64,000 bases of DNA from Ignavibacteriota bacterium (GCA_025358305.1 JANYJZ010000030.1:96382-160381); one strand, 5' to 3'. Positions 5,335 through 23,684 are shown, counted from the stretch's first letter. Translations and numbers: made by a program. Notes: generated from the sequence alone by a model not told the origin.

Positions 5335-5407
5335 CCCGCGTCACGCCGCCCGCCCGACGAGCACATTCGAAGAAAGCACCGACAGGATCGCGCATCTCCG
5401 ACACAAT

Positions 5408-6736
5408 ATGACGAACGCACGCCGAGACCTGCCGACTGTTCATCCGTTGCGGCTCGCGGCCCTCATCCTCCTTTCCCTCGGGAGCATAGCGCCCGGCCTC
5501 GCCCAGCGCGTCCTCTCCCTCGACCAATGCACGGCCATCGCGCTTGACCAGAATCTGAACATGCGCAGCGCGAACGTCGCCCTGCGGTTGGCGAAGCTCG
5601 CGCGGGAGGAAGCGGACCGTTCCGGCCGCCCGCAAGTGCGGGCCTCCGCGAAGGCGCTCGTCGCACCCTATTCCGACAAGCTCGGGTACGATCCCGCGAT
5701 CACCGACGGCGGCCAGTACTCCGCGCAGCTCGGCGTGCAGGGGCTCCTCTTCGACGGCGGCGCACGGAGCTCCAGGGCCCGGCAGCTCGACGCCGACGTC
5801 GAACGCCTCGGCATCGACGAGCGCCGCGCCGCGAGAGACGTGCGGGCAAGCGTCGCGGCGGCGTTCTTCGACCTCCTCCAGGTGATGGATGAATCGAGCC
5901 TCCAGCGGGAACGAATCGACGGGCTCTCACAGTACCTGGACCTCGTGAACCGGCTCTACCACGGTGGCGGCGTGAACTACACCGACGTCCTCAAGACCGA
6001 AGTGAGCCTGGAGAACGCGCGGACACTCCTTGAGAAAGAGGTCCAGGCCGGCGAGTCCGCAAAACTGTCCCTCGCCGAAGCGATGGGGTCGCCGGACGAC
6101 ACGGCCTTCGCCATCGCCGCGCCGGCGCAGCCGTTCGATTCCGCCGCCGCGGAGTCCCTCCTCGTGCGCGGCGCGGTCGATTCCGTCCGATCCCTCGACC
6201 TCCAGAGCGCCAGGCTCAACGTCGAGCGAAGCCTCTTCAGCGTCGACATCGTCCGGTCGGAGCGGCTCCCGTCGGTCTCGCTCACCGGGGACGTCGGGCT
6301 CCTCTCGTCCGGCGACAATCTCAAGCTCCCGTCGGGCCGGCGCGCGGCCACCGTCGGCTACTCCGTCGGCATCACCGTGGAGAACCTCCTGTTCGACTGG
6401 GGCTCGACCGGCCTCCGGATCGAGCAGCAGCAGCTCGAAACGGAGAACCTCCGCCTGAACTTCGAACTCCAGCGCCGGACGCTCAACGCCTCGCTCGAGC
6501 GCCTGCGCGGCGAGATCCGCAGCACGATGGGCCAGATGCGCTCGATCGCCAGGACGCAGAATATCGCGGAGGATAATTACGCGCTCACGAAGGCGCAGTA
6601 CGCCGGCGGCGGCACGACCGCGCTCGACGTCCTCTCCGCCGAGCAGCTTCTGGCCGACAGCCGGCTCGCCGCGCTCCAATCGCGCGCCGATCTCAAACGA
6701 TTGCTCTCGAAGCTCGAACAATTCTATGCACAGTAG
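5408..6736 (+). CDS. Outer membrane efflux protein (TolC/CzcC-like outer membrane factor)
   Basis: Signal peptide (LRLAALILLSLGSIAPGLAQ) and two-repeat organisation of the OEP family. It is the first gene of an OMF-MFP-RND set. The start is moved to the ATG at 5408, because the N-terminal extension of the ORF in the track is Arg-rich junk. Confidence 0.75.
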   Translation: MTNARRDLPTVHPLRLAALILLSLGSIAPGLAQRVLSLDQCTAIALDQNLNMRSANVALRLAKLAREEADRSGRPQVRASAKALVAPYSDKLGYDPAITDGGQYSAQLGVQGLLFDGGARSSRARQLDADVERLGIDERRAARDVRASVAAAFFDLLQVMDESSLQRERIDGLSQYLDLVNRLYHGGGVNYTDVLKTEVSLENARTLLEKEVQAGESAKLSLAEAMGSPDDTAFAIAAPAQPFDSAAAESLLVRGAVDSVRSLDLQSARLNVERSLFSVDIVRSERLPSVSLTGDVGLLSSGDNLKLPSGRRAATVGYSVGITVENLLFDWGSTGLRIEQQQLETENLRLNFELQRRTLNASLERLRGEIRSTMGQMRSIARTQNIAEDNYALTKAQYAGGGTTALDVLSAEQLLADSRLAALQSRADLKRLLSKLEQFYAQ

Positions 6737-7748
6737 AACGGGAACCCAGGTGACCTCACGACTCATTGTCCTCGCGTCTTTCGCCGCGTGCCTCATCATC
6801 GCCGGATGTTCTCGTCCGAAGGAAGAGTCCAGCGACGCTCCCGCGGCGAACGTGCGCGTCCCGGTCTGGGTCCGCAGCCTCGTCCGTGGTTCGATCGAAT
6901 CCGCCGTCACGGCCGTTGGGAGCACCGAGGCGCTCCGGAAGGAGAAGATCCTCTCGCCGATCGCCGGCAGGGTCGTTTCCCTCAAGGTCCTCGAAGGCTC
7001 CTCCGTCAGCGCCGGCGATGTGCTCGCCGTCCTCAGGACGCGCGAAGCCCAAGCGACGCTCGAGGGGGCCGACGCTCTCCTCCGGACGGCCACGACCGAG
7101 AGGCAGCGGGCGGAGGCCCGACGCGCCCGGTCCCTCGCCGATTCGGTACAGGGGCAGATCCTCGTCCGAGCGTCATTCAGCGGGGTAGTCTCCTCCCGCA
7201 ATGTCGCCGAAGGAGAACTCGTCGCCGAACAGACGGTGCTCCTCTCGCTCATCGATCCGACGACGATCATCTTCGTCGCGGATGTCCCTGCGGCCAACAT
7301 CGCCGGGGTCCGGACCGGCCTCTCCGCACGGATCCGCCTCAACCAGTTCCCCGCCGGCGAACTCAGCGCGTCCGTGGACGCCGTCAGCCCCGAGGCCGAC
7401 GCGCAGAGCCAGTCGGTGAAGGCCCGGCTGCGGTTCCGCGGACTGACCGCGGTCCAGCAACGCTCCATGAAGTCGAACCTCGCCGGGACGGTCCGGATCA
7501 TCACAGAGCTCCGGCGCAGCGTCCTCCTCGTCGGGAGCTCCGCGCTCCTCCACGACGACGAGTCCGACGCCTTCTCCCTCGTCATCATGACGGCGGACTC
7601 GCTCGCTCGGATCATTCCGGTCACGCTCGGGGCGCGTTCCGACTCGCTCGTCGAGGTCATGAGCCCGGCGCTCCATGAGGGACAGAACGTCATCATGCAG
7701 GGCCAGTACGCGCTGGCGGACTCCACTCGGGTCACCGTCGAGCCGTAA
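6726..7748 (+). CDS. RND efflux membrane fusion protein (HlyD/CzcB-like periplasmic adaptor)
   Basis: Lipoprotein signal (LIIAGCS) and a lipoyl/beta-barrel motif (ILSPIAGRVVSLKVLEGSSVSAGDVLAVL). It overlaps the upstream OMF gene and its stop overlaps the RND gene start (TAATG). Confidence 0.8.
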   Translation: MHSRTGTQVTSRLIVLASFAACLIIAGCSRPKEESSDAPAANVRVPVWVRSLVRGSIESAVTAVGSTEALRKEKILSPIAGRVVSLKVLEGSSVSAGDVLAVLRTREAQATLEGADALLRTATTERQRAEARRARSLADSVQGQILVRASFSGVVSSRNVAEGELVAEQTVLLSLIDPTTIIFVADVPAANIAGVRTGLSARIRLNQFPAGELSASVDAVSPEADAQSQSVKARLRFRGLTAVQQRSMKSNLAGTVRIITELRRSVLLVGSSALLHDDESDAFSLVIMTADSLARIIPVTLGARSDSLVEVMSPALHEGQNVIMQGQYALADSTRVTVEP

Positions 7749-10700
7749 TGAGCATCTTCGCCTACTGCCACCGCCACCGGAAGGCGCTCCTCTTCACGAT
7801 CGCAGTGCTCACCGCGGCGGGCGTGGGAATGATGCTCCATCTCCCGATCTCGCTCTTCCCCGACATCACGTTCCCGCGCATCGTCATCGTCGCCGACAAC
7901 GGCTCCGAGCCAGCGGCGCGCATGATGGTGGAGGTGACGAAGCCGCTCGAGGAGGTCGCAACGGCCGTGCCCGGGGTCAAGTACGTCCGCTCCACGACCT
8001 CGCGGGGCTCGACGGAGATCTCCATCGGGCTCGACTGGGGAAGCGACGTCCAGCAGACGCTCGGACTCCTCCAGGGCCGCATCGCCAACATCCGCAACGC
8101 CCTTCCGACGACGGCGTCCATCCGGTCGGAGCAAATGACCGTCGCCATCTTTCCGATCGAGGGGTACAGCCTCACGTCCGATTCCCTCTCGCTCGTCGAG
8201 CTCCGGGATATCGCGCTCTACCAGATCCGCCCCGCGCTCCTGAAGGTCGCGGGCGTCGCCCATGTCGACGTCACCGGCGGCGACACCAGGGAGTTCCTCG
8301 TGACGGTGAACCCCGAGAGGCTCGCCGCCTACCGCCTCACCGTCCAGCAGGTCTCCGACGCCGTGGAACACACGAACTTCGTCGCATCGACCGGCCTCCT
8401 GAACGATAATTACCAGCTCTACCTCTCGCTCGTCTCCGGCCTCATCTCAAGCGTGGACGACGTTGCGCGGATCATCGTCGCGGTGCGCAACGGCGTGCCC
8501 GTGCACGTCCGGGACGTCGCCGAGGTGAAGCCGTCGGTGGCGGACCTCTTCATCCGGACGACCGCGCACGGCCGCGACGCCGTGCTCATCAGCATCCTGA
8601 AGCAGCCGAACGGCAGCACCGTGCGGATCTCCTCCGACATCACGGAAGCCATGCGGCGCCTCTCGCTCCCGGCCGGCGCGCACTTCGAGAACTTCTACGA
8701 CCAGGGAAGCTTCATCAGCGGCTCCATCGCGGGGGTCCGCGACAGCATGCTCATCGGCGTCGGTCTCGCGATGGTCATCGTCCTCGTCTTCTTGCGGAGC
8801 TGGCGCCTCACGCTCATCATCCTCCTCGTCGTTCCGGCGACCATCGCTGTGACCTTCCTCTGCCTCGGCGCGCTCGGTAAGACGATCAACATCATGACCC
8901 TCGGCGGCATCGCCGCGGCCGTCGGGCTCATCATCGACGATTCGATCGTCATCATTGAGCACATCTTCACGCGGTTTGCGCGCCTCGACCGGTCGTCGCA
9001 CACGGCGGAGGGGTTCGCGCGCAACGCCGACAGTTCCATTCGGTCCTTGATGCCGGCGATCATCGGCTCGACCGCGAGCACCATCGTCATCCATATCCCG
9101 CTCGCGTTCCTCGGCGGCGTCACGGGGGCCTTTTTCGCGTCTCTCTCCATCACGATGGTCTGCGCGCTCACGATCTCCTTCCTCCTCTCGATCACGCTCG
9201 CGCCGCTCCTCGCGTCGTCACTCTTGCGCGAGTCGGATATCGCCCGGGAGGTCGCGCACGAGCACCGCGAATCCACGCTCGCCCGCCTCTACGGCCGGTG
9301 CGTCGCCTTCTCGCTGAAATACCGCTTCGCCCTCCTTCCCGCGGCGGCCGTGATCGTCTTCGTCGCGTTCACGTTCTATACTCGGCTGGGGTCCGAGTTC
9401 TTGCCGGAGATGGACGAAGGGACGTTCATCCTCGACTACCTCTCGCCGCCCGGCACGTCGCTCGCGGAAACGAACCGCATGCTCGGACACGTCGAGACCA
9501 TCCTCCAGGCGACACCGGAAGTGGAATCGTACTCTCGGCGGACGGGGACGCAGCTCGGGTTCTTCATCACGGAGCCGAACGTCGGGGACTACACCGTGAA
9601 GCTCCACGAGGGGCGCTCCCGGTCGATCGAGGACGTCATGAACGGCGTCCGCGACGAAGTGCGCTCTAACGAGCCGTCGCTCCAGATCGACTTCTTCCAG
9701 CTCATGACGGACGTCATCGGCGACCTGACGAACTCCCCGTCGCCCATCGAGATCAAGCTCTTCGGCGACGACGCCTTGGCCCTTCAGGCGACGGCACAAC
9801 AGGCGCGCCAGCTCATCGAGACGGTGCCGGGCGTCGTGGACGCGTTCGACGGGATCGTCATCTCCGGGCCGTCGCTCATCATCCGCGTCGACCAGGAGAA
9901 GGCCGCCCTCGCCGGGTTCACGCCGCAGGACGTCCTGAGCCAGACCGAGAACATCATGGAGGGGCGCATCGATACAAAGGTCCAGCGGGGGGAAAAGCTC
10001 ATCGGCGTGCACGTCCGGTACCCCGACGCGTACCGCCAGGACATCGCGCGGCTCACGGCGGTCTCCCTCGTCGCGCCGGGCGGCGCGCTCGTCCCTTTGC
10101 GGTCCATCGCGCGGATCGACCGCGTCGCCGGGGAAGCGGAGATCAAGCGGGACCAGCTCCAGCAGCTTATCGCCGTCACCGCGCGGACATCCGGGCGCGA
10201 CCTCGGCAGCACGATGGCCGACATCAAGAAGCTCCTCGCGGGGAAGCTGCGGCTTCCGCCGTCCGTGTCCGTCGAGTTCGGGGGGATCTACCAGACGCAG
10301 CAGGAGTCGTTCACGGGCCTCGCGCTCGTCGCCCTCTCTGCGCTGCTCCTCGTCGTGATCGTGCTCCTCTTCGAGTTCGGCGAGTTCACGATCCCGCTTT
10401 CGATCTTCCTCATCAACGCGATGTCGCTCGCGGGCGTCTTCGCGGCCCTGTGGCTCACGAACATGACGCTCAACGTCTCGAGCCTCGTCGGCATCATCCT
10501 CATCATCGGCATTGTCGCGGAGAACGCCATCTTCATTTTCCACATGATCCAGCAGTTCGAACGCGAAGGGGTGTCGATTGACGACGCCATCAGCCGCGCC
10601 ATGGCGGTCAGAGCCCGCCCGATCGTCATGACGACGCTCGCCGCGATCCTCGCCCTCCTCCCCCTCGCCCTCGGCATCGGGGCGGGGGCCCAGATGCAGC

Positions 10701-10798
10701 AGCCTCTCGCCATCGCCGTCATCGGCGGGTTCTCGGTGTCGAGCCTGCTCCTGTTCTTCGCTCTACCGCCGTTATACCGCTCTCTGAGGCGCGGGTAG
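7748..10798 (+). CDS. RND efflux pump inner-membrane subunit (CzcA/HME-like)
   Basis: 1016 aa with 12 transmembrane helices and large periplasmic loops of the AcrB/CzcA superfamily. The gene order OMF-MFP-RND mirrors czcCBA, and a CDF transporter sits next to it. Confidence 0.85.
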   Translation: MSIFAYCHRHRKALLFTIAVLTAAGVGMMLHLPISLFPDITFPRIVIVADNGSEPAARMMVEVTKPLEEVATAVPGVKYVRSTTSRGSTEISIGLDWGSDVQQTLGLLQGRIANIRNALPTTASIRSEQMTVAIFPIEGYSLTSDSLSLVELRDIALYQIRPALLKVAGVAHVDVTGGDTREFLVTVNPERLAAYRLTVQQVSDAVEHTNFVASTGLLNDNYQLYLSLVSGLISSVDDVARIIVAVRNGVPVHVRDVAEVKPSVADLFIRTTAHGRDAVLISILKQPNGSTVRISSDITEAMRRLSLPAGAHFENFYDQGSFISGSIAGVRDSMLIGVGLAMVIVLVFLRSWRLTLIILLVVPATIAVTFLCLGALGKTINIMTLGGIAAAVGLIIDDSIVIIEHIFTRFARLDRSSHTAEGFARNADSSIRSLMPAIIGSTASTIVIHIPLAFLGGVTGAFFASLSITMVCALTISFLLSITLAPLLASSLLRESDIAREVAHEHRESTLARLYGRCVAFSLKYRFALLPAAAVIVFVAFTFYTRLGSEFLPEMDEGTFILDYLSPPGTSLAETNRMLGHVETILQATPEVESYSRRTGTQLGFFITEPNVGDYTVKLHEGRSRSIEDVMNGVRDEVRSNEPSLQIDFFQLMTDVIGDLTNSPSPIEIKLFGDDALALQATAQQARQLIETVPGVVDAFDGIVISGPSLIIRVDQEKAALAGFTPQDVLSQTENIMEGRIDTKVQRGEKLIGVHVRYPDAYRQDIARLTAVSLVAPGGALVPLRSIARIDRVAGEAEIKRDQLQQLIAVTARTSGRDLGSTMADIKKLLAGKLRLPPSVSVEFGGIYQTQQESFTGLALVALSALLLVVIVLLFEFGEFTIPLSIFLINAMSLAGVFAALWLTNMTLNVSSLVGIILIIGIVAENAIFIFHMIQQFEREGVSIDDAISRAMAVRARPIVMTTLAAILALLPLALGIGAGAQMQQPLAIAVIGGFSVSSLLLFFALPPLYRSLRRG

Positions 10799-10881: not shown

Positions 10882-11814
10882 TCAGGCGTGCGGACGATCG
10901 GTGCGGTCCAACGCGACGTCGTCCCAAGAGCTCGGGTCATCCGAGGATTCAAGGTGGGTGAACACGGTTGCATTTTCAATGGCGGCGCGGATGTCATTCT
11001 CGATCTTTTCGAGAAGTTGGTGTCCGTCGTGGACGGTCCATTGGCCGGGAACAAGGACATGGACAGAAATAAACCTCCGGGAGCCCGCTTGCCTCGTTCG
11101 CAGAGCGTGATAGGACACATCTGAGGAAGCGTACGTGTGAAGGATCCGTTCCACTTTCTTCTGTTCCTCGTCTGGCAGCGATATATCCATCAGCCCTTCC
11201 ACCGATGTCCGAACGATGCCGAAGCCGGACCAGACGATGTTGCATGCGACACCAAGCGCGACGATCGCGTCGAGCGGAATCCAACCCGTCACAGACACAA
11301 CACCGACACCGAGAAGAACTCCCACCGACGTCCACACGTCGGTCATGAGATGGCGCGAATTTGCTTCAAGCGTGATGGAACGATATGTCCGACCGGCCCG
11401 TCGAAGGATCAGGGCCGTGCCAAAATTCACCAGTGAGGCCCCGACCGAGACGATCAATCCAAGCCCGATCTGCTCGATCGGTCTTGGATGGAAGAGCCGG
11501 TCGATTGCCGTAAAGCCGATGCTGAGTGCCGCTATCAGGATCAGCAATCCTTCAACGCCGCTCGAAAAATATTCCGCTTTGCTGTGTCCGTAGGAGTGGT
11601 CGTCATCGGCGGGACGCGATGCGATGGTCAGCATCGCCAGCGCCATGAACGCGCCGATGAGGTTCACAAGTGACTCAACCGCATCAGAAAGCAACCCAAC
11701 CGAACCGGTCAGCTTGTACGCGATCGTTTTAATTGCGATGGTAAGAATGGCGGCTCCGATAGAAAGCCAGGCATATCTCGTAAGGAATGTCCTATCGGGT
11801 GATTCCGGAGTCAT
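10882..11814 (-). CDS. Cation diffusion facilitator family transporter (CzcD/FieF-like)
   Basis: 310 aa with the CDF signature [12 protein letters not shown], six transmembrane helices, a C-terminal cytoplasmic domain and an HSYGHS motif. Confidence 0.85.
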
Positions 11815-12093: not shown

Positions 12094-12103
12094 TTGGGCA
12101 ATG

Positions 12104-12175
12104 CTCCACAGGCGGGACTCGAACCTGCAACCCTCCGGTTAACAGCCGGATGCTCTACCATTGAGCTACTGTGGA
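12104..12175 (-). tRNA. tRNA-Asn (anticodon GTT)
   Basis: The minus-strand sequence TCCACAGTAGCTCAATGGTAGAGCATCCGGCTGTTAACCGGAGGGTTGCAGGTTCGAGTCCCGCCTGTGGAG folds as a cloverleaf. The D-arm is TAGCTCAATGGTAGAGC, the anticodon loop cTGTTAAc, the T-loop GGTTCGAGTCC, and the acceptor stem is 7 bp. The T-stem has one A-C mismatch. Confidence 0.8.
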
Positions 12176-12309: not shown

Positions 12310-12348
12310 AAAAAAGCACATCCCCGATGAGACAAGTCTCCCGGGGAT
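12310..12348 (-). terminator. Intrinsic terminator-like hairpin plus T6 after the small Cys/His ORF
   Basis: On the minus strand atccccg/cggggat encloses a nested gagac-aa-gtctc hairpin and is followed by gtgcTTTTTTggggggg. A 4-nt spacer separates the stem from the T-tract. Confidence 0.4.
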
Positions 12349-12440
12349 TGTGTCGCCTTCGCTCTCTCGGGGATCGTGATTCTTAGTAGGAGGTGAAAAT
12401 CCGATCCGGATGAGGAAGAATTAAGACTCAATGCAGAGGA

Positions 12441-12716
12441 TCAGCCGTTCACGAAGGGATGCCGGCCCATCGGGTGTGGCCTTCCGCTCTCCTGCGCGTC
12501 CGGCAGCGTGATCGCATGACTCTTGTTCCGGCCCGGGCGCCGCACTCCCCTCTTGATATGATGATCATAACAGAGGACCGTTCCCATATACGCCTCCTGT
12601 CCACAGAGCATACATTGGCCGTCCCGCACTTTGCGGAGCTGATACTTGCGCTGCCGGGAGAGGGGGAGATCAGCGACCTCGTCGGCGACCTTGCGCCGGT
12701 TGTTTCTGTTGTCCAT
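12441..12716 (-). CDS. Hypothetical small Cys/His-rich protein (91 aa), possibly zinc-binding
   Basis: GC3-rich codon usage consistent with coding. It carries a C-x2-C ... C-x2-HH motif (QCMLCGQEAYMGTVLCYDHH). It lies 63 nt downstream of the GT28 gene on the same strand and is followed by a terminator-like hairpin. No family was recognised. Confidence 0.4.
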   Translation of the reverse strand: MDNRNNRRKVADEVADLPLSRQRKYQLRKVRDGQCMLCGQEAYMGTVLCYDHHIKRGVRRPGRNKSHAITLPDAQESGRPHPMGRHPFVNG

Positions 12717-12779
12717 GAAGGTACCCTTGACGAAGGTGAAAAATGCGTGTGACGGGCGAGAGAATGATGAAGCGCCGGA

Positions 12780-13916
12780 TCACGCGGCGTTGAATCTCAC
12801 AATATAGTCCGATACCTGATGCACGCCATTGACAAGGTGTGCCCGCGCGATGTTCTGATGGAACGAGTCGAACAGCTGGGCATCGCTGAAGAGCTTGTGA
12901 ACCCACGAGGAGAGCTTCTCTGTGTCCTGTTCGTAGATGCCCATGCGGTTCTGGCACAGATAATCGACGTTCCCCTTCTCCTGCTCCCACAGATAGTTGT
13001 TCACGATCGGGATCTTTCCAGCGAAGAGTGTCTCCATGAACATCGACGCACCGCACTTCGTGATGACGATGTCGGAGGCCTGGAGGATCTCGTGGACGGA
13101 ATCAACGTAACCAAACACGTGGAGCCGGTCCAGCCTCACTGATGCCTTGAGCGCCGCGATCCGCTCCCGCATGGCGTGATTTTTGCCGCAGACCACGGCG
13201 ATCTCCGCCTCGGGATTCCTGCGAAGAAGGTGCTTCACGATCTGCGTCCCCTTGGGGATGCCGTCAGCGCCGCCGATAATGAGAATGAGTCTCCTCTCCG
13301 GGTGGAAACCCCAGCGCCGGCGGAGGACGTCCTTCGACCCGGCGGGGGCGCCGAACCGCTCGTTCAAGATGAACGGGAACACCGTGAGCCTGTCCTGCCT
13401 GATCTCCTTCTGCAGGCAGTGCGTGCGCAATTGCTCGCTGAAAACGATGAAGTGGTGGTCCTTGTCCAGGAACCAGAGCGGGTGCGCGGTGAACGGGTCC
13501 GTCACGACGACGAGCGTCGGGATCGCCAGAGCATGCCTGGCGAGTATCTCCTTGACCGGCCGGATCAGGAAGAAATGGAAGATCACGATCTTTTCCGGGA
13601 GTTCCGACAGGATGCGGCGCTCCAGGTAGGGTGTAACGAAGAACGAGACGATCCGCGCATTCGCGCGGGCCACGAACGGCCACTTGTTGACATAATAGAG
13701 GAGCGCGTAGATCCAACGGCCGTACGCCTGCAGGAGCCTGTAACCGTCCTCGATGCAGCGCCGGATCGCCGCCGGGGCCTCGCCCAGGCCGTCGATGAGC
13801 ACCGGTTCGTGGATCTCCGGATATCGCGTCTTCAGCAATGACGTCACGGAGCTTGCGGGAGCGAGGTGGCCGCCGCCCGTCTTCAGGTAGAGAAAGAAAT
13901 ACGGCCTGTTCGTCAT
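12780..13916 (-). CDS. MGDG synthase / UgtP-like diacylglycerol glycosyltransferase (GT28 family)
   Basis: The N-terminal part resembles the MGDG-synthase domain (YFFLYLKTGGGHLAPA, VVTDPFTAHPLWF). The C-terminal part matches Glyco_tran_28_C (LILIIGGADG, VVCGKN, ITKCGASMFMETLFAGKIPIV). The start is set to M17 (MTNRPYFF). Confidence 0.7.
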   Translation of the reverse strand: MTNRPYFFLYLKTGGGHLAPASSVTSLLKTRYPEIHEPVLIDGLGEAPAAIRRCIEDGYRLLQAYGRWIYALLYYVNKWPFVARANARIVSFFVTPYLERRILSELPEKIVIFHFFLIRPVKEILARHALAIPTLVVVTDPFTAHPLWFLDKDHHFIVFSEQLRTHCLQKEIRQDRLTVFPFILNERFGAPAGSKDVLRRRWGFHPERRLILIIGGADGIPKGTQIVKHLLRRNPEAEIAVVCGKNHAMRERIAALKASVRLDRLHVFGYVDSVHEILQASDIVITKCGASMFMETLFAGKIPIVNNYLWEQEKGNVDYLCQNRMGIYEQDTEKLSSWVHKLFSDAQLFDSFHQNIARAHLVNGVHQVSDYIVRFNAA

Positions 13917-14018
13917 GTCGTCACCCTCATCCTCTGTTGGCATGCTTGAACATACGAAACACACAACACGGAATGATGACCGGAATGTTACCTTCCTGTT
14001 GTGAGTGTCACGGACGCA

Positions 14019-15446
14019 TCAGCGCAAGAGCGGCGAATCATCCGCATGCGTTCTCCCTTCGCGGAGGATGTCCAGGATCTTGTAGGTGCCGAGTTTCCGC
14101 GCCTTGAGGAACCCCGCCCAGGCGGCTTCGGCGAACCTGCCGTTCTCGAGTAGATCGAAGAGCCACTGGTCGGTGTACTCAGGGTTCTCCTGCTTGATCC
14201 CGGCCTGGATCTCGAGGAGCCACTTTTGATTGAAGTACTCCTGGGACCCGATCGCAGGGGAGATGATGAGCGGTATTCCCAGGCCGCAGTAGAACGAGAG
14301 TTCGCTCGGCTTCGACCAGAGGATGTCCGTTGTCCTGAGCGTTTCGTTGAAGAGTGCGTAGTACCGTTCGAACGATTCGCCGAAAACGATGTTGATGCTC
14401 CGGGACGGGCCCCCACCGACCTCGCGCCGGACCTCTTCGAAGTACTCCCGCACCGCCGGCGCCGTTCCGGCGACGAGGTTCAGTACCATCTCCCCGGACT
14501 CGAGCTTCGATCGGAGGCTCACGGCGATCTTCTTCCCTATCTCCTTCTGGGCTTCCGCACCGCCGACCGCGAAGGTGAGCGTCAGCGCGCGGTGCTTCCA
14601 GGGGATGCAGTGCTCCTCGCCGAGGATGTGCTCGACGTTCTTGTTGTGCAGCGGCCAGAATCGTTGGTTCGGGTCGAGATAGTGCAGCCGCTGTCCGAGA
14701 TCGGTCTTCAAGGTCGAAAGATCGCGGCCGCCGAGGAGTTCCTCCGGCAGCGGAAACCCCGTCAGATGGATGCGGTCATGCGGCACGCCGTATGACTGGA
14801 GGCGTTGCGCCGCCTTGCCGCAGGGCGCGAAGTAGAGGATGCGGCTTTCCCATGGGTCCTTCGACACCCAGACCCGATTCAGGTCCGCATCGCAAATGAT
14901 GCAGTAGACCGGCCGCAGTCCCCGCAGGTCGGCCGCGATGGCCGGCGCATAGAAGGATGTGACGACCGGGAGCGGATGCTCCGCCACTCTCCGCAGCACT
15001 CCCGTACAGAGCCCGCGCCGGATGAACGACTCGAGCGCGTGCACCTGGAACGTGCTCTGCGAGAGGTTCCGAATGGGATAGAACGACGGAATGTAGAGAA
15101 ACCGGTTGAGGATCTTGAAGAGGTACTTACCAATCCAGGGAATCCCCTTCGCACGGGAGAATCTCGCGTAGACGGCGAGGATCTTCTTCCAGAGCTTCTT
15201 CTCTCGGGGGGTCGAACCGTCGTTCTCGCCGAGCGTGATGATCTCCCGGTAGGCGATCTCGTGGAGGGGAAGAATGGCCCGCAGATGCCCGTATCCCATG
15301 TTGGCCGAGACGAGCCACACCTTGCCTTTGCCGCTGCGCGGGTCCTCCCCGCGCCGCTGCGGCGCTCCCTGCCGTACGGATGATTCGATCTCGTTGTCTT
15401 CGTGCACTGGTTGATGGGGGCGATCGCTGGAGGCGGGAACCGTCAA
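14019..15446 (-). CDS. Second MGDG-synthase/UgtP-like GT28-family glycosyltransferase (paralogue)
   Basis: The N-terminus VWLVSANMGYGHLRA matches the UgtP GYGNGH motif. Further motifs VVTSFYAPAIAADL...ICDADLNRVWV...IHLTGFPLPEEL follow the MGDG-synthase domain pattern. Its start overlaps the upstream gene stop (ATGA). Confidence 0.55.
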   Translation of the reverse strand: MTVPASSDRPHQPVHEDNEIESSVRQGAPQRRGEDPRSGKGKVWLVSANMGYGHLRAILPLHEIAYREIITLGENDGSTPREKKLWKKILAVYARFSRAKGIPWIGKYLFKILNRFLYIPSFYPIRNLSQSTFQVHALESFIRRGLCTGVLRRVAEHPLPVVTSFYAPAIAADLRGLRPVYCIICDADLNRVWVSKDPWESRILYFAPCGKAAQRLQSYGVPHDRIHLTGFPLPEELLGGRDLSTLKTDLGQRLHYLDPNQRFWPLHNKNVEHILGEEHCIPWKHRALTLTFAVGGAEAQKEIGKKIAVSLRSKLESGEMVLNLVAGTAPAVREYFEEVRREVGGGPSRSINIVFGESFERYYALFNETLRTTDILWSKPSELSFYCGLGIPLIISPAIGSQEYFNQKWLLEIQAGIKQENPEYTDQWLFDLLENGRFAEAAWAGFLKARKLGTYKILDILREGRTHADDSPLLR

Positions 15447-16354
15447 TTGAGCACCAGCTCCCCCGGCGCCAGGAGACCGGGCGCCGCCGAATGCGCCGGC
15501 AGTTCCGTCGGCTGCGGGGCCAGCGAACCGTGAAAGCGATTGAGGTGGACGGCGCCGTTCCGGACGCTGAGAAAACTGGGGGGGGACTCCGTCCAGCAGC
15601 CGCTGTTGAGATACTCAACGGCGCCGTCGACGAACCGTTCCGCGTGGTGCGTATGGCCGCAGCAGACCATGTCCGCGCCTTTTAGCCTGGCATAGGCGAT
15701 GGATTCGACCCTGATCTTCCGGATGCACCGCAAGAAGACCTTCGTGTTGCTCTTCGCGAACCGGGCGACCCGGTGGGTGCGGTCCGTCCACTGGAGGAGG
15801 CGATAGACCAGGTCCGCCAGGAGCGTGATCGTCGGATACATGTTGATGAAGTCGTCGAACTGGTGTCCGTGAAGCACGAGCACTCGGCGGCCGCCAGTCT
15901 CGAACTCGTGTTCGTCCCGCACTTGGACGCCCAGCAGATGGGAGATCGTCTCCGCAGGCCCGTCGTGATTGCCGCACACCCAGGTGATCTCCATGCGGTC
16001 CGACAGCTTCCGGACGAGCGAGAGGATCTTCCAATGACGCTTGTTGAGCCGGCGAAAGTCGATGGAATCAAAGACGTCGCCGTTGAGAATGAGCCGGCGC
16101 GTCCGGATGTCGGAGCGCTCGAGGGATTCAAGGAATTCGATGATGGAGGCGTCCCGGCAGAGGGAGCTGCCGAGGTGGAGATCAGAGATGATGACCGCAT
16201 CGTGGAACGATGGATCGGTTGAGAGGAAGAATGTCGTCGGGTGGATCGGGCGAATTCGTTCCAAACACTTTCCTTCCAATCGTGAGCAATCGTGTTCGTT
16301 CGGGCAACCGTACACGCGAACCTTTGCGCTTGCATACACAAGATAGCATTTCAT
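15443..16354 (-). CDS. Calcineurin-like metallophosphoesterase (LpxH-like)
   Basis: Metallophosphoesterase motifs ISDLHLG, NGDVFD, GNHD, GHQFDD and GHTHH are all present. The start is uncertain: M44 (ATG at 16354) is used, with an in-frame TTG further downstream as an alternative. The ORF in the track extends to 16483. Confidence 0.65.
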   Translation of the reverse strand: MKCYLVYASAKVRVYGCPNEHDCSRLEGKCLERIRPIHPTTFFLSTDPSFHDAVIISDLHLGSSLCRDASIIEFLESLERSDIRTRRLILNGDVFDSIDFRRLNKRHWKILSLVRKLSDRMEITWVCGNHDGPAETISHLLGVQVRDEHEFETGGRRVLVLHGHQFDDFINMYPTITLLADLVYRLLQWTDRTHRVARFAKSNTKVFLRCIRKIRVESIAYARLKGADMVCCGHTHHAERFVDGAVEYLNSGCWTESPPSFLSVRNGAVHLNRFHGSLAPQPTELPAHSAAPGLLAPGELVLN

Positions 16355-16597
16355 ATTACCGGATGATGACGCCAAGATTAACCTTGTCGTAACACCTGCG
16401 GGAGCCCCGTCGATTCCCCCTGATTGGACCAGATCCGGCTCTCGCACGCGGAGGAGGAATATATTCTTCACTTTTGGGATCAATCCGCTCGTTCGCGGAG
16501 TATCATGAATGCAGTCTCCCGCCCATTCTTGGCCGCCTCCCCTCCCGGGGACCCCGCAGGGAGGCTTGAAGCGGGGGCAGGGACGTGATCCCCGTTC

Positions 16598-16697: not shown

Positions 16698-19199
16698 ATG
16701 GAAGGAAATTTCTCGAACAGGGTTCAGGATGTCATCCGGCTCAGCCGCGAGGAAGCGCTCCGGCTGGGTCACGACTACATCGGCACAGAACACCTCCTTC
16801 TCGGCGTCATCCGTGAAGGCGAGGGGATCGCGGTCAAGATCCTCCGCAATCTCGGCGTCGATCTCTACAAGCTGAAGAAAGCGATCGAGGACACGGTCCG
16901 CACATCGGGCGGAACGCTCACGATCGGCAACATCCCGCTGACGAAACAGGCCGAAAAGGTCCTGAAGATCACCTATCTCGAGGCAAAGCTCTATAAGTCC
17001 GACGTCATCGGGACGGAGCATCTCCTCCTCTCGTTGTTGCGGGACGACGACAACATCGCCGCCCAGATCCTCCACCAGTTCAACGTCCATTACGACGTCG
17101 TCCGCAACGAGCTCGACAACATCATCAGCGGCAAACCCTCGAACCCGCCCGCGGCCCCGGCCGCGGAGCGCCGCGCCGACAAGTCCAAGACACCGGTCCT
17201 CGACAACTTCGGCCGCGATCTCACGAAGCTCGGCATGGAAGACAAGCTCGACCCGATCGTCGGCCGCGAGAAGGAGATCGAACGCGTCGCCCAGGTCCTG
17301 AGCCGCCGGAAGAAGAACAACCCCGTCCTCATCGGCGAGCCCGGCGTGGGAAAGACCGCCATCGCCGAAGGCCTCGCGCTGCGCATCGTCCAGAAAAAGG
17401 TGTCGCGCGTCCTCCACGACAAGCGCGTGGTGACGCTCGACCTCGCCGCGCTCGTCGCGGGCACGAAGTACCGCGGCCAGTTCGAAGAGCGGATGAAGGC
17501 CGTCATGAACGAGCTTGAAAAGGCAAAGGACGTCATCCTCTTCATCGACGAACTCCATACGATCGTCGGCGCCGGAGGCGCGTCCGGATCGCTCGACGCT
17601 TCGAACATGTTCAAGCCGGCCTTGGCGCGCGGCGACCTCCAGTGCATCGGCGCCACGACGCTCGACGAGTACCGCCAGTACATCGAGAAGGACGGGGCCC
17701 TCGACCGCCGCTTCCAGAAGATCATGGTCGATCCGACCTCCGTCGACGAGACCATCCAGATCCTCAAGAACATCAAGCACAAGTACGAAGAGCACCACAA
17801 TATCCGCTACACGGACAAGTCGCTCGAATCCGCCGTGCGCTTAAGCGACCGCTACATCACGGACCGGTACCTCCCGGACAAGGCGATCGACGTCATGGAC
17901 GAAGCGGGGTCGCGCGTTCACCTCTCGAACATCCACGTCCCGAAGCAGATCCTCGAGCTCGAGGGCGAAGTGGAGAAGATCCGCCAGTCGAAGAACAACG
18001 TCGTAAAGAACCAGAATTTTGAGGAAGCGGCCCGCCTGCGCGACCTCGAGAAGAAGCACCTGAGCGATCTCGACCTCGCGAAGCGCGAGTGGGAGCTCAA
18101 GGCCCAAGAGACGATCTACGAGGTGAACGAAGAGACGATGGCCGATGTCGTCGCGATGATGACCGGCATCCCCGTCAATAAGATCGCCCAATCGGAATCC
18201 GACAAGCTCCTGAAGATGGAGGACGCCCTCACCGGCATCATCGTCGGCCAGGAGGAGGCGATCGTCAAGCTCAGCAAAGCCATTCGCAGGACGCGTGCAG
18301 GCCTGAAGGACCCGAAGCGGCCGATCGGCTCGTTCATCTTTCTCGGGCCCACCGGCGTCGGCAAGACGGAGATGGCGAAGGCCCTCGCCCGGTATCTCTT
18401 CGACACGGAAGAGGCCCTCATCCGCATCGACATGAGCGAGTACATGGAGAAGTTCAGCGTCTCCCGTCTCGTCGGCGCGCCTCCGGGCTATGTCGGATAC
18501 GAGGAAGGCGGCCAGCTCACCGAGAAGGTCCGCCGGAAGCCCTACTCCGTCGTCCTCCTCGACGAGATCGAGAAGGCGCATCCGGACGTGTTCAACATCC
18601 TCCTCCAGGTCCTCGACGACGGCATCCTCACCGACAGCCTCGGCCGCCGGGTGGATTTCAAGAACACGATCCTCATCATGACCTCGAACATCGGCGCGCG
18701 CGACATCAAGTCGACCGGCGGGTTCGGGTTCGGCGCGGACACGCCCAAGGACAACTACAAGTCGATGAAGAACACGATCGAGGACGCGGTAAAGCGCGTC
18801 TTCAACCCGGAGTTCCTCAACAGGATCGACGACACGATCGTGTTCCACAGCCTCGACCGGGGACACATCGACAAGATCATCGGGATCCAGATGAAGGAGC
18901 TCATCAAGCGCATGGTGCAGCTTGATATCAACATACAGCTGACGAAGCAGGCGAGGGAGTTCCTCGTGGACAAGGGGTTCGACCCGGCGTTCGGCGCACG
19001 GCCGCTGAAGCGCGCGCTCCAGAAGTACATCGAAGATCCGATAGCGGAAGAGATCCTGCGCAACAAGTTCGGCCAGGGCAGCCTCGTCAAGGTGCGCCTG
19101 AACAAGAAGACCGAGACGCTGAAGTTCAGCGAGGGATCGAAGCGCCGGAAGGACGCGCCGGCTGAACCGGAGAAGCCGCAGAGCGCCAGCGTGAGCTGA
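16698..19199 (+). CDS. clpC: ATP-dependent Clp protease ATP-binding subunit ClpC (Clp/Hsp100 AAA+)
   Basis: Two Clp_N repeats ([42 protein letters not shown]). Two AAA+ modules with Walker A motifs GEPGVGKT and [12 protein letters not shown]-like linker, and a ClpB_D2-small C-terminus. Confidence 0.9.
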
Positions 19200-19284: not shown

Positions 19285-20226
19285 TCAGTGCGTCAGCTGC
19301 CGCGCTCCCGTGCCGTCTGCATTCATCACCCAGACCTCCATCGCGCCGGTGCGGTTGCTCTGGAAGGCGATGTGCGTGCCGTCGGGAAACCACGAGGGGG
19401 TCTCGTCCAGGTAGTTTTCGTCGTGCGGCGCGAGCTTCCGGGCGTCGCCCGTGCGGACATCGACGATCCAGATGTGCGCGGCCCCTTTTCGCTTCCGGCT
19501 GTTCACCTGGACGGCGAGGCGCCTTCCGTCCGCCGACCACGAGGGGCACTGCGCACCCCCCTCTTCCGCAGCGATACGGGTCACCTGCCGGACGTTCGAT
19601 CCGTCGGCGTCCATGACGTACACGGCGAGCTCCGACGCGGAGTCCTTGCGACTCGTGTAGGCGATTTGCTTCCCGTCGGGCGACCATCGGCTGTTCCAGG
19701 CGATGGAGAATCCGCCGTTGATGAGCCGCGGCGGCGCGCCGTCGAGCGTCGACAGGAGCAGCCGCGTAGCCGTCCACGTTCCCCCCATGGAGACGAGTCT
19801 CGTGCCGTCCGGCGAGAGGGCCGGGCTGCGGCCGGAAACGCGGGCGAGCAGCTTTCTCTCCGATCCGTCCGGAGCGACGGCGAAGACGCTGCTCGTGTCG
19901 CTCGCGAAGACTGAGTAGACAAGCCGCGCGCCTCCCCGGGTCCACCCGGCGACCGCCTCATGCTCCGGAGAGTCGGTCAGGCGCGTAGCCGTTCCTCCGG
20001 CGGCCGGAATGAGAAAGAGGTCGTCCTTGCCGTCGACCGTCGAGGTGAAGGCGATCGTCCCGCCGTCCGGCGCAACGCACGGGGCCCCGCTCGTTCGTAC
20101 GGTCTTCACGGGAGTGGGCTGCGCCCCCGACATCGTGAACAGGCAGGCAACGACCAGAAGGGAGACACCGCCCGCGATTCGGGCGGCGATCCTGGGATGA
20201 CGGTTGAAGGGGTGCATAGGCCTCAT
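19285..20226 (-). CDS. Periplasmic PD40/TolB-like beta-propeller repeat protein
   Basis: Signal peptide present. Repeated SPDG...LV/A... blades (SWSPDGKQIAYTS, SWSADGRRLAVQ, SWFPDGTHIAFQSNRTG) are typical of PD40 repeats. Confidence 0.7.
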   Translation of the reverse strand: MRPMHPFNRHPRIAARIAGGVSLLVVACLFTMSGAQPTPVKTVRTSGAPCVAPDGGTIAFTSTVDGKDDLFLIPAAGGTATRLTDSPEHEAVAGWTRGGARLVYSVFASDTSSVFAVAPDGSERKLLARVSGRSPALSPDGTRLVSMGGTWTATRLLLSTLDGAPPRLINGGFSIAWNSRWSPDGKQIAYTSRKDSASELAVYVMDADGSNVRQVTRIAAEEGGAQCPSWSADGRRLAVQVNSRKRKGAAHIWIVDVRTGDARKLAPHDENYLDETPSWFPDGTHIAFQSNRTGAMEVWVMNADGTGARQLTH

Positions 20227-21198
20227 TCACTTCCAGATGTACGGTTGCTGGTTCGAGCCGTCGGCATGCATTGTCCAGATCTCCCAATTGCCATGACGCC
20301 GGTTCGTTTGAAAGTACACTGTCGTCCCCTCGGGCGACCATCGGGGCATTTCGTTGTCTCCGTCCTTCGTCTCGACGATCTTCGTCAGCTCGGTGCCATC
20401 CGCCTTCACCGCGTAGATGCAAAACCGCTTTCCCTCATTTGCCCACTGGAACAGCAGCTGCTGCCCATCCGGGGACCACGAACAGTACTCCCCGATCGAC
20501 GTGATGTAACGTTCGGTTCCCGTCGCCAGATCGAAGACGGCGAGGCCGCGCTCGCGCTCCGTTTCGGTCTTCTGCCGGATGCATCTGTAGGCGATCCTGT
20601 CCCCTCCCGGCGAGTATACCGCCCCGTAGCGGATCCCGCCTGGGGCGATGAGGGTGTCGACCGTTCCATTGACGAGATCCACGCGGTAGATCCCGAGACG
20701 GGGGAACGTACCTGCGGCGCAGATGAACCCCTTCCCGTCAGGGGTCCATGACGGTGTTTGCGGCAGTACGAGGTGAAACCTCGTACTGACGTCTTCGGCC
20801 GTGTCTCGCTTCAGATCGTAGATGCAGACGACCCCCTCCTTCGGCGTATAGAGGACGCTCGCTCCGTCAGCGGAGATGAGAGGCATGGAACCTTCACAGA
20901 GCAGGCGGTCCGAGGTATCTGCGACCGACCTCCGGAAGAAGATCTTGATCTTGCCTTCGGACCTGTTCGATTCGTAGGCGAACGACCCGCTGGCGGACAC
21001 AAAGGGCATGGAGTAATTGTAGGTCCCAACCCTGAGCAGCTGCATCCCGCACAACGGACACTGGCCTCCTGTCTCAAGGACCTTCGCGTCGTTCGGACAG
21101 TTGCACGGTGCGCAGTAGTATCCCGCGGGCGTCTGCGAGAAGCTGAGCACGGAGGCGAACGCGGCGAGCATCCAGCAAGCGAACATGCGGCTTTTCAT
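20227..21198 (-). CDS. PD40 beta-propeller protein with an N-terminal Cys-rich (CxxC-x14-CxxC) putative metal-binding motif
   Basis: The start is set at MKSRMFACW (21198). After the signal peptide comes YYCAPCNCPNDAKVLETGGQCPLCGM, then PD40 blades (SWTPDGKGF, YSPGGDRIAY, SWSPDGQQLLF, RWSPEGTTVYFQTNR). It abuts the downstream PD40 gene. Confidence 0.6.
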   Translation of the reverse strand: MKSRMFACWMLAAFASVLSFSQTPAGYYCAPCNCPNDAKVLETGGQCPLCGMQLLRVGTYNYSMPFVSASGSFAYESNRSEGKIKIFFRRSVADTSDRLLCEGSMPLISADGASVLYTPKEGVVCIYDLKRDTAEDVSTRFHLVLPQTPSWTPDGKGFICAAGTFPRLGIYRVDLVNGTVDTLIAPGGIRYGAVYSPGGDRIAYRCIRQKTETERERGLAVFDLATGTERYITSIGEYCSWSPDGQQLLFQWANEGKRFCIYAVKADGTELTKIVETKDGDNEMPRWSPEGTTVYFQTNRRHGNWEIWTMHADGSNQQPYIWK

Positions 21199-21314
21199 GC
21201 GATCCTCTCGTCCCTGAAATGGTGACAACTGCCCCATGGGAGCCCCGTTCGGTCCCATGCTCAGAGGGTACGCGAAGGGCGCCGGAAGGTTGCAGGCGGC
21301 GCCGCCAGGAAGGC

Positions 21315-23684
21315 TCAATAGCCCTGTTCCTGCACCTCCGTCGCGACGATGTCGAGCGTCCTGTGCATCTCGCCGAGGATGGATGTGAACTCGGGATCGC
21401 CGCGGAGCCCGTCGAACCAACTGTCCGACTGGTACCACGAATACCAGTAGTTCCCGAGGCGGGTCGCCCGGCGCATCCAGGCGAGCGCCTCGACGCGGTT
21501 CCCCAGCTTCGCATGGATCGCGGCTGCCTGCCGGGCCATGGCGTAGTCGAACTCCACGAACCCCTTGATCCGGCCGAGCGCACGGCCCGCCGCGGCCGTA
21601 TCTCCCCGCGCCGCCGCCAGCATGGCGCGCGCGAGATCGACCTGCGGGCTCGTCGGCTCGCTTTGTGCAGCGCGCGTGATCTCCTCCTCCGCCTTGCCGA
21701 GGTCGTCGAGCCTGATGTAGCTCAGGGCGAGGAGACCGGCCCGGAGCCACGCGTCGTCCGGGCTGCGTTGAATGGCGCGCTGGAGGTGGAAGATGCTCTC
21801 GCGGTACCGGCCTTGGAACTGGTACATCCGGGCGCGGACCCGATCGATGTTGAACGTCGGATCATAGTCGGCTGCGCGGTCGAAGATCTCCTTCGCGCGG
21901 TCGAACTCGCCCCGATACTGATAGAAGACGCCGACGTCCTCGAGTGACGAGCTCGAATGCGGATCGATCGCGAGCGCGCGGAAGGACTCCCTCACACCCG
22001 CCGGGTAATCGCCCTTGACGCGCAATGCAAATCCGAGCGCGGCGTGCGCCATCGCCATCGACGGATCGATCGCGAGCGCCTTCCGGGCCGTCACCTCCCC
22101 CTTCCCGACCCACGCGGTGTCCGCCGAATAATTGCTCCAGAACTGTTCGACGTAGACGTCGCTGAGCCGCGCGTAGGCTTGGGCGAAGAGCGAATCGCGC
22201 CCGACCGCGCGCTCGAACTGCGCCATGGCATTCTGGTTGTTCGCTTTCGAGCTCTTGTTGAGGTAGCCGATCCCCCGCAGGTATGCCTCGTAGGCCACGT
22301 GGCTCGACGTGCTCACCTTGTGGAGCGCCTGAACCTCCCCCTCGGTGAGGGGGATCCGGAGCCCTTCGACGATCCGTTCCGAGATGTTGTCCTGCACGTC
22401 CCGCATGTCCTGCCAGAGGAAGTCAAGCTTGTCCGCGACAAGGATCGCGCCCGAACCGACGTCCACGAGCTGGAAATTCACGTAGAGCCGGTCCCCCATC
22501 CGCTGGAACCTGCCCTCGAGGACGAACTCCGTTCCGAGGTCCGCGCCGGCCTTCGCCGCCGTGACACTCTTGCCCTCGAACGCGACGATCGCGCTCGTCG
22601 GACGCACGAGGAGCGACCGGACGTACGAGAGCCTCGTGATGATGTCGTCCGCGAACCCGATGGAGAGGAAGTTGCTCGCGGAGTCCTGCGCGGCGTTCGT
22701 AAACGGTAGGACGGCGATGGTCTTCTGCGCCCGGAAGGGGTTTCCGAAGCCGCGGAGGAGGAAGTACGATCCGATCCCGACGGCGACGAGGAGGACTGCC
22801 GCGATCACGGCGAGCCGCGGCGGCAGGAGCGTCGCGTCGATCGTGCGGCGCATGTTCGGGTGCGCCCGGAGCCGCTCAAGGTCGTTCCGGACCTCCGTCA
22901 TCGTTTGGTAGCGCCGGCGGCGGTCCTTCTGCATCGCTTTCGCGATGATGCGGACAAGTTCACCCGAGGTTCCCGGGCGGACCTTTGCCGGTGAATCGGC
23001 GTGCTTCCGGGTGATCGACGTGAGGAGCTCCGCGACCGTCCTTCCCTTGAACGGCAGCTCGCCTGCCACCATGAGGTAAAGGAGCGTCCCGAAGGAAAAG
23101 ATGTCGCTCTGGGCATCGATCTCCTCCTCGTTGATCTGCTCCGGCGACATGTAGGCAAAGGTCCCGATGAGGCTCCCGGGACTCGTCACGTGGCTCGACC
23201 CCATGAGGCGCGCCAAGCCGAAGTCCATGACCTTCACTTGGCCCTGCGTCGAGATCATGACGTTCTCCGGCTTGATGTCGCGGTGCACGATGCCGTGGTC
23301 GTGGGCGTCGGCGATGCCTGCGGCGATCTGGCCCGCGATCTCGAGTACGCGGTCGGCGCCGAGCGGTCCTTCCAGGAGGAGCGCCCCGAGCGTCTTTCCC
23401 TCGACGCATTCACTGGCGATGAACGCCGTGCCGTCGATCTCATCGAACTCATGGATGGTGACGATGTTCGGATGGTTGAGCGACGAGGCGAGACGCGCTT
23501 CCTGGAAGAACCGCGCCCGGTCGTCGGGGGATGCGGCGAGGATGGCGGGAAACACCTTGAGGGCGACGAACCGGTGGAGCTTCAGGTCCTCCGCCCGGTA
23601 GACAATGCCCATCCCGCCCTCGCCGAGCTTGGAGACTACGCGGTAATGAGAAATGGTCTGCCCGAGCATGCCGGATGGTCCCAT
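21315..23684 (-). CDS. Serine/threonine protein kinase with a transmembrane helix, a TolB-N-like periplasmic domain and C-terminal TPR repeats
   Basis: Hanks kinase motifs GEGGMG, VALKV, HRDIKPEN, DFGLA and SPEQ. A transmembrane helix (LAVIAAVLLVAVGIGSYFLL). Then IAVLPFTNAAQD...FVLEGRFQRMGDRLYVNFQLVD, a TolB-amino-terminal-like module, and then TPR-like repeats. The start is set to MGPSGMLGQT (23684). Confidence 0.75.
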   Translation of the reverse strand: MGPSGMLGQTISHYRVVSKLGEGGMGIVYRAEDLKLHRFVALKVFPAILAASPDDRARFFQEARLASSLNHPNIVTIHEFDEIDGTAFIASECVEGKTLGALLLEGPLGADRVLEIAGQIAAGIADAHDHGIVHRDIKPENVMISTQGQVKVMDFGLARLMGSSHVTSPGSLIGTFAYMSPEQINEEEIDAQSDIFSFGTLLYLMVAGELPFKGRTVAELLTSITRKHADSPAKVRPGTSGELVRIIAKAMQKDRRRRYQTMTEVRNDLERLRAHPNMRRTIDATLLPPRLAVIAAVLLVAVGIGSYFLLRGFGNPFRAQKTIAVLPFTNAAQDSASNFLSIGFADDIITRLSYVRSLLVRPTSAIVAFEGKSVTAAKAGADLGTEFVLEGRFQRMGDRLYVNFQLVDVGSGAILVADKLDFLWQDMRDVQDNISERIVEGLRIPLTEGEVQALHKVSTSSHVAYEAYLRGIGYLNKSSKANNQNAMAQFERAVGRDSLFAQAYARLSDVYVEQFWSNYSADTAWVGKGEVTARKALAIDPSMAMAHAALGFALRVKGDYPAGVRESFRALAIDPHSSSSLEDVGVFYQYRGEFDRAKEIFDRAADYDPTFNIDRVRARMYQFQGRYRESIFHLQRAIQRSPDDAWLRAGLLALSYIRLDDLGKAEEEITRAAQSEPTSPQVDLARAMLAAARGDTAAAGRALGRIKGFVEFDYAMARQAAAIHAKLGNRVEALAWMRRATRLGNYWYSWYQSDSWFDGLRGDPEFTSILGEMHRTLDIVATEVQEQGY

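Follow-up and report, generated by a model that had tools for sequence, protein, structure and literature searches.

Adjacency of a gene for the phospholipase C PlcP and a gene for a diacylglycerol (DAG) glycosyltransferase is known from an established lipid-renovation pathway (PMC4796936, PMC8528852, PMC9239053). Members of this PlcP-Agt pathway include Sinorhizobium meliloti SMc00171, Phaeobacter MED193, SAR11 HTCC7211, Pseudomonas aeruginosa PA3219/PA3218/PA0842, and Methylosinus OB3b. In P. aeruginosa, Agt1 and Agt2 make two head groups (PMC8528852), and in Methylobacter tundripaludum and Crenothrix, plcP was found by synteny beside a gene for a UgtP-like DAG glycosyltransferase (PMC9239053). 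Within glycosyltransferase family 28 (GT28), the Roseiflexus (Chloroflexi) paralogues RcMGD, RcMGlcD, and RcDGlcD split mono- and diglycosyl-DAG synthesis among them (PMC3276260). Here, we analyzed a 64,000-nucleotide stretch of DNA (hereafter, the window) from an Ignavibacteriota bacterium (GCA_025358305.1 JANYJZ010000030.1:96382-160381), which carries a cluster of four genes, g1 to g4, within positions 12441-16483 on the minus strand. We interpret the cluster, at a probability of roughly 0.55, as a module for making glycoglycerolipids, of the PlcP-glycosyltransferase, or lipid-renovation, type. The best relatives of the host mark it as an Ignavibacteria-type member of the FCB group. A preliminary description of this DNA had considered the association of an LpxH-like enzyme with transferases of the monogalactosyldiacylglycerol (MGDG) synthase type to be undescribed; it has a precedent in the PlcP-glycosyltransferase pathway, including the UgtP-like case (PMC9239053).

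The locus resembles the PlcP-Agt systems in that a capped metallophosphoesterase (MPE) with a GNHD motif directly adjoins one or more DAG glycosyltransferase genes. Two transferases are also present in P. aeruginosa, and one g1 homologue lies behind phosphate-regulation-type genes, in the order phoR-pstB-phoU-phoB-MPE (locus L089). It differs in that a GT28 enzyme and a DUF6938 protein stand here where the GT4 enzyme Agt stands there, and in its Ignavibacteria-type host. In Methylobacter tundripaludum and Crenothrix, as here, a PlcP-type gene adjoins a GT28/UgtP-type gene, with no DUF6938 partner reported there. An open reading frame (ORF) scan of the window bore out the 4 co-directional genes of the preliminary description, and public assemblies contain identical genes, called as 303 (g1), 462 (g2), 378 (g3), and 91 (g4) amino acids (aa).

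The product of g3 (12780-13916, minus strand; 378 aa) matches the Pfam families MGDG_synth (E = 3e-9, 37.6 bits; cutoff 25) and Glyco_tran_28_C (5e-11, 43.3 bits; cutoff 22). Its full-length alignment with the NCBIfam UgtP model PRK13609 reaches 137.6 bits, below the equivalog cutoff of 500; judged by these scores, g3 is a family-level relative of UgtP and not an orthologue. A profile of 22 g3 family sequences, run against the PDB, retrieved Arabidopsis MGD1 at 3.9e-44 and Bacillus subtilis UgtP at 8.5e-38, versus 1.6e-4 for MurG, which rules out a MurG reading of the transferases and upholds for g3 the MGDG-synthase/UgtP-type assignment made earlier. Like MGD1 (4wyi/4x1t) and UgtP (9wde), with which it aligns over its full length, g3 has the GGGH, TD..HP.WF, and QE.GN motifs. 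We accordingly class it, from its family membership, as a GT28 lipid glycosyltransferase of the DAG-glycosylating kind.

Its upstream neighbor g2 (14019-15407, minus strand; 462 aa in the public call, with the ORF open to a TTG at 15446) has DUF6938 as its sole Pfam match (1.9e-8, 34.6 bits), without a match to MGDG_synth or Glyco_tran_28_C in Pfam and with only 17.8 bits against the NCBIfam UgtP model. The two genes had been described as tandem GT28 paralogues: this holds for g3, whereas g2, with DUF6938 alone in Pfam and a great distance from g3, does not qualify, although the G-x-G-H and central (T/C)D...W motifs attributed to both proteins are indeed present. Compared with MGD1 and UgtP, g2 is divergent enough to be placed in a separate Pfam family of unknown function. 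Identity between g2 and g3 is 21% over the C-terminal domain (BLASTP E = 0.003), and hhalign comparison of the two families gives an E value of 0.002 and a probability of 13%, with the alignment collinear over 349 columns. On these sequence comparisons, g2 is a very distant relative of g3 rather than a recent tandem duplicate. Homologues of g2 number more than 3000, with identities of 58% to 77% among the matches listed, and DUF6938 comprises 887 clusters at 50% identity (E ≤ 1e-3, among 1.84e9 representatives); a full-text literature search for DUF6938 returned no papers.

The AlphaFold2 model of g2 (mean predicted local distance difference test score [pLDDT], 82; predicted template modeling score, 0.82) has a GT-B fold with two Rossmann-like domains. 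Foldseek searches of the PDB with this model yielded 93 matches at E ≤ 1e-3, with MGD1 (4x1t) as the best (1.3e-6), and all 50 matches listed have the GT-B fold, being glycosyltransferases or UDP-GlcNAc 2-epimerases. Among solved structures, the best match of the g2 family profile is UgtP (9wde, 2e-4). Its sub-threshold alignments fall exactly on ANYGNGH and TDxxLHKIWV, and the UgtP matches span G-x-G-H, TD...W, and QE..N. Invariant in DUF6938 are the motifs MGYGH, CDxDxNRVW, VGGAGA, TKPSELSFY, and GSQExxN, with residues H41 (MGYGH), G282-G283, K366/E369 (TKPSELSFY), and E390/N393 (GSQExxN). We take His41 to be the counterpart of the GGGH histidine, the catalytic base in MGD1. The C-terminal glycine-rich and E..N motifs are those of nucleotide-sugar recognition. 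From the model and the conserved residues, g2 looks like a catalytically competent GT-B enzyme. Some DUF6938 proteins are longer (P0076, 641 aa; P0272, 837 aa), one being fused to PF11667 and the other carrying approximately 395 extra N-terminal residues.

Residues 85-117 of g2 (approximately 15057-15155, minus strand) contain the sequence IPSFYPxRNLSxSTFQV, which is almost invariant in DUF6938 yet modeled at a pLDDT below 50, and may form a membrane-, acceptor-, or partner-binding loop. Such a conserved, low-confidence segment might provide a novel site for an acceptor or a partner, and acceptor specificity is not readable from sequence; together with the gap between 137.6 and 500 bits at the UgtP equivalog model, these points speak for an acceptor other than DAG (ceramide, a carotenoid or polyprenol, or an ether lipid), or for DUF6938 as a noncatalytic partner or regulator of the GT28 enzyme. 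We consider this improbable: the best characterized relatives of g3, MGD1 and UgtP, all use DAG, as a product of a PlcP-type neighbor DAG is formed in all studied cases, and g2 retains His41, the phosphate-loop glycines, and the E/N of QE..N, which a mere scaffold would not need.

The first gene, g1 (15443-16354, minus strand; 303 aa in the public call), encodes an MPE with Pfam matches to Metallophos_2 (1e-12) and Metallophos (1.7e-7), in which all 5 MPE motifs reported previously were found (DLH, GDVFD, GNHD, HGH, and GHTH). The preliminary label "LpxH-like" fits its fold and not its family. In the AlphaFold2 model (pLDDT 77), helices at residues 169-224, between motifs IV and V, form a cap, and the best 25 Foldseek matches in the PDB are all LpxH (approximately 1e-13). 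Both LpxH and PlcP have a helical, lipid-binding cap inserted into the MPE core, so that this feature cannot tell them apart; furthermore, no PlcP structure exists, which leaves LpxH as the sole capped MPE available for matching. At the family level, g1 reaches 24.8 bits against the NCBIfam LpxH model (NF003743), for which the curated whole-protein cutoff is 134, and its third motif reads CGNHDG where Escherichia coli LpxH has HGNRD in the same alignment column. According to the legend of Fig S5 in PMC9239053, PlcP needs the histidine of GNHD for its activity, and LpxH has another residue in its place.

Profile and pairwise scores point the same way. A hidden Markov model (HMM) built from 120 g1 homologues gives 110 bits to a PlcP-type protein of Parabacteroides distasonis, 105 to P. 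aeruginosa PlcP, and 96 to S. meliloti PlcP, versus 26 to E. coli LpxH and 23 to 41 to the Bacteroidales MPEs described below. BLASTP comparison with g1 gives 1e-18 to 1e-26 for PlcPs and 6e-4 for LpxH. In tblastn searches of the window, validated PlcPs match g1 at 1e-17 to 1e-19, and E. coli LpxH has no match at 1e-3 anywhere in the 64 kb. The two validated PlcPs were found in PLSDB records of chromosomal DNA labeled as plasmid. P. aeruginosa plcP (L091, CP075839.1) precedes a GT4 gene and cyaB, and S. meliloti plcP (L090, CP090106.1) lies beside a LuxR-type regulator and an acyl-homoserine lactone synthase gene, on a 3.7-Mb replicon labeled pSymB. These are presumably PA3219-PA3217 and SMc00171 with sinR/sinI, respectively. 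We accepted these identities because the neighbors fit and because the two proteins are 46.6% identical, in agreement with the published 46% (PMC8528852).

That g1 is the organism's genuine LpxH, serving lipid A synthesis and placed beside the transferases by coincidence, is therefore a reading to which we attach very little probability. It draws on the LpxH structural matches and on the public annotation of g1 homologues, which are widely labeled LpxH or UDP-2,3-diacylglucosamine diphosphatase, and it is countered by the family model, the GNHD motif, and the profile scores, as well as by the absence of lpx genes beside g1-family members in any context examined. In family terms, g1 is, as far as sequence can place it, grouped with PlcP and not with the UDP-diacylglucosamine pyrophosphatases, with which it shares the fold. 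This makes largely moot the refuting condition set in the preliminary description, namely that g1 be the only lpxH of the genome. The PlcPs in L090 and L091 are themselves annotated as UDP-2,3-diacylglucosamine diphosphatases. For g1-family members and PlcPs alike, the name LpxH is probably incorrect, with consequences for any lipid A pathway that is deduced from genome sequence.

To place the cluster among its relatives, we scanned one genome per species for g2 relatives and confirmed them at no fewer than 590 places, in Ignavibacteriota, Bacteroidales (including the cultured Alkalitalea saponilacus), Spirochaetota, Verrucomicrobia, and Fibrobacterota. A g3-type gene follows directly downstream in 53 of the 75 analyzable species-level loci, at a median gap of approximately 5 nucleotides (nt). 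These paired loci span Ignavibacteriota, Bacteroidales, Fibrobacterota, and "Leptospirales" metagenome-assembled genomes (MAGs), and most spirochaete and verrucomicrobial g2 loci are without the downstream gene. Orthologues of g1 (59% to 62% identical) stand directly upstream of g2 only in the 4 closest species and 2 further MAGs, and the order MPE-DUF6938-GT28 is found in the window and at least 6 related MAGs. In a clade labeled mostly Bacteroidales and including Alkalitalea saponilacus DSM 24412 (DUF6938-GT28-MPE at L042 5953-9332), a different MPE lies directly downstream of the GT28 gene, at the end of the unit, in all 8 of 8 loci; it is 21% to 25% identical to g1, and no other MPE in the comparison is nearer to it. 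Because the g2-g3 pair is kept in 53 of the 75 loci and the MPE is facultative and differently placed, the stable core is DUF6938 plus GT28, to which a capped MPE was added on two or more occasions and at differing positions.

Members of the g1 family also occur next to other lipid glycosyltransferase genes. In another lineage, a g1-family MPE closes a methyltransferase-GT4-acyltransferase-MPE operon, and in yet another, it is divergent from a GT4 gene. Such independent, recurrent links of the g1 MPE clade with lipid glycosyltransferases across lineages support the assignment of the locus to lipid renovation.

Several side observations concern these neighborhoods. A protein of approximately 215 aa, with a sub-threshold VTT/DedA match, is encoded upstream of DUF6938 in 3 loci (L078 4884-5531, L079 5357-6013, and L082 5119-5787) and is a possible partner with lipid scramblase or flippase activity. 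An MFS_1 gene adjoins the g1-family MPE convergently in 3 planctomycete-type loci (L086-L088), and an MFS_1 gene is also found downstream of S. meliloti plcP (L090). In one MAG, a CTP_transf_3 cytidylyltransferase gene follows MPE-DUF6938-GT28 (L095 6144-6941). An OmpR-type regulator near a g1 orthologue (L007) cannot be called PhoB. In the human gut Bacteroidales species P. distasonis (L092 4989-6910; NZ_OY725790.1), the product of the canonical PlcP-type gene shares 46% identity with P. aeruginosa PlcP and bears an LpxH annotation, and the gene has a 4-nt overlap with one for a glycosyltransferase of the Glyco_trans_1_3 family. As this neighbor is not GT28 and is unrelated to g3, the locus was rejected as an instance of the same module; it looks like another PlcP-glycosyltransferase variant.

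A number of observations weigh against a lipid-renovation role for the locus. The identity of g1 to PlcPs is 23% to 31%, depending on the alignment, whereas PlcPs are 40% to 47% identical among themselves. Of the 6 PlcP motifs (DXH, GDXXD/H, GNHD, HGD, GHIH, and GDW), g1 has DLH, GDVFD, GNHD, and GHTH and departs at 2, with HGH for HGD and GCW for GDW, both variants being invariant or nearly so across the g1 family, and its cap is shorter, without a segment of approximately 12 residues found in PlcP. By these comparisons, g1 represents a sister subfamily of PlcP, and its substrate could differ. Most g2-g3 loci have no MPE next to them, most planctomycete g1 homologues stand alone, and the link of the MPE to the pair is facultative. 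Homology between g2 and g3 is marginal by sequence. Finally, a search of the 64 kb for the proteobacterial Pho box CTGTCATNNNNCTGTCAT with at most 3 mismatches returned 2 sites, which is the chance level, and none near the operon; the consensus, being proteobacterial, may not be the PhoB motif of the host phylum, which renders this result uninformative.

The deviations of g1 at HGD, GDW, and cap length, the many stand-alone homologues, and the prevalence of pairs without an adjacent MPE would also suit a scheme in which g2-g3 is a constitutive glycolipid synthase and g1 is a phosphatidate or lipid-phosphate phosphatase, a nucleotide or UDP-sugar-linked diphosphatase, or an unrelated neighbor. 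We regard this scheme as unlikely, though less so than a non-DAG acceptor, since at least 3 independent gene arrangements join the MPE clade to lipid glycosyltransferases, g1 is far nearer to PlcP than to any other characterized MPE, and its cap is of the lipid type.

We therefore favor lipid renovation as the function of the cluster, in keeping with the preliminary proposal of a membrane-glycolipid gene cluster, which the g3 family, the g2 fold, and the PlcP-like g1 support. In the sequence of steps that we infer, g1, as an Mn- or other metal-dependent MPE, would most likely cleave membrane phospholipids in the manner of a phospholipase C, with DAG and a phospho-headgroup as products; the earlier suggestion that the phosphoesterase supplies DAG fits this evidence. 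A hexose would then be transferred from a UDP-sugar to DAG by g3, with both sugar and acceptor predicted from its family. Acting with g3, g2 might add a second sugar, converting monoglycosyl- to diglycosyl-DAG, or make a second head-group class in the manner of Agt1 and Agt2. The g2-g3 pair is the evolutionarily stable core of the system, and the phosphoesterase an accessory recruited in some lineages. The families, folds, and synteny statistics are observations, and the substrates, order of action, and regulation are proposals.

The boundaries of the transcription unit required some revision. The g1 ORF reaches a TTG at 16483 and the public call begins at the ATG at 16354; the first approximately 50 residues are not conserved and are modeled at a pLDDT below 50, the conserved core beginning at approximately 16200. 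An ATGA overlap had been reported between g1 and g2, but the junction reads caaTTGAcgg, that is, TTGA, and the genes overlap only if g2 starts at the TTG at 15446; in the public call (P0001, 462 aa), g2 begins with the GTG at 15407, which puts a 35-nt gap between it and g1. Of the two gap sizes given previously, the 63 nt between g3 and g4 was confirmed, and that between g2 and g3 measures 102 nt, not 103. The hairpin followed by T6 is present as an intrinsic-terminator-like structure with U6 at 12310-12352 (minus strand; RNA folding energy, -20.7 kcal/mol; z = -2.9 versus shuffled sequences), approximately 90 nt beyond the end of the unit as first delimited. Directly downstream of it is a tRNA-Asn(GTT) gene (12103-12175, minus strand), preceded by a sigma-70-like promoter (12279-12251, minus strand; TTGACA-17-TATATT, 11 of 12 consensus positions). 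With these elements in succession, the hairpin is a plausible end point of the transcription unit.

The last ORF, g4 (12441-12716, minus strand; 91 aa), contains a CxxC...CxxHH pattern and is co-transcribed by position only. Its GC content by codon position (0.65/0.45/0.75) is compatible with coding, the third-position value comparing with 0.79 to 0.84 in g1-g3. A search of 5.8e9 proteins retrieved only g4 itself, no homologue was found in 85 related loci, in none of which such a gene follows g3, and neither Pfam nor NCBIfam assigned a family, the match to Endonuclease_7 being weak (E = 0.066). The small Cys/His protein had been counted as part of the glycolipid operon; with no homologue and nothing to tie it to the pathway, g4 is probably an unrelated orphan ORF.

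A look at the genes flanking the operon revealed no evident tie to lipid metabolism. On one side lie an operon for an OEP, an HlyD-type membrane-fusion protein, and an AcrB-family resistance-nodulation-division (RND) efflux pump (5258-10798, plus strand) and, convergent with it, a cation diffusion facilitator transporter gene (Cation_efflux and ZT_dimer; 10882-11814, minus strand), which together look like a metal-efflux neighborhood. On the other side, a ClpC-type AAA+ chaperone gene (16698-19199, plus strand) is divergent from g1 and forms one neighborhood with genes at 19285-21213 (minus strand), 21315-23879 (minus strand), and 23976-26228 (plus strand) for two PD40 beta-propeller proteins, a Ser/Thr kinase with tetratricopeptide repeats, and a TonB-dependent receptor.

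Four points are new: a subfamily that is sister to PlcP, a GT28 enzyme and a DUF6938 protein standing in for Agt, the wide occurrence of the DUF6938-GT28 pair, and the phyla concerned. Beyond the locus itself, we tentatively suggest, with less confidence than its assignment to lipid renovation, that DUF6938 is an unrecognized family of membrane-lipid glycosyltransferases and the obligate partner of an MGDG-synthase-like GT28 enzyme in many Ignavibacteriota, Bacteroidales, Fibrobacterota, and their relatives. This pair may be responsible for a glycolipid class to which no genes have yet been assigned in these phyla, and the g1 and Bacteroidales MPE clades would be two new subfamilies of PlcP-like phospholipase C, recruited independently as feeders. 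A literature search on the lipid composition of Ignavibacteria, Melioribacter, and Alkalitalea found nothing usable. The proposal provides a first functional hypothesis for DUF6938. PlcP has so far been studied or reported mainly in Proteobacteria, with homologues noted in Flavobacteria and one verrucomicrobium; if confirmed, the present assignment would extend PlcP-based remodeling of phospholipids into glycolipids to Ignavibacteria, anaerobic Bacteroidales, and Planctomycetes-type organisms of soils, sediments, and bioreactors.

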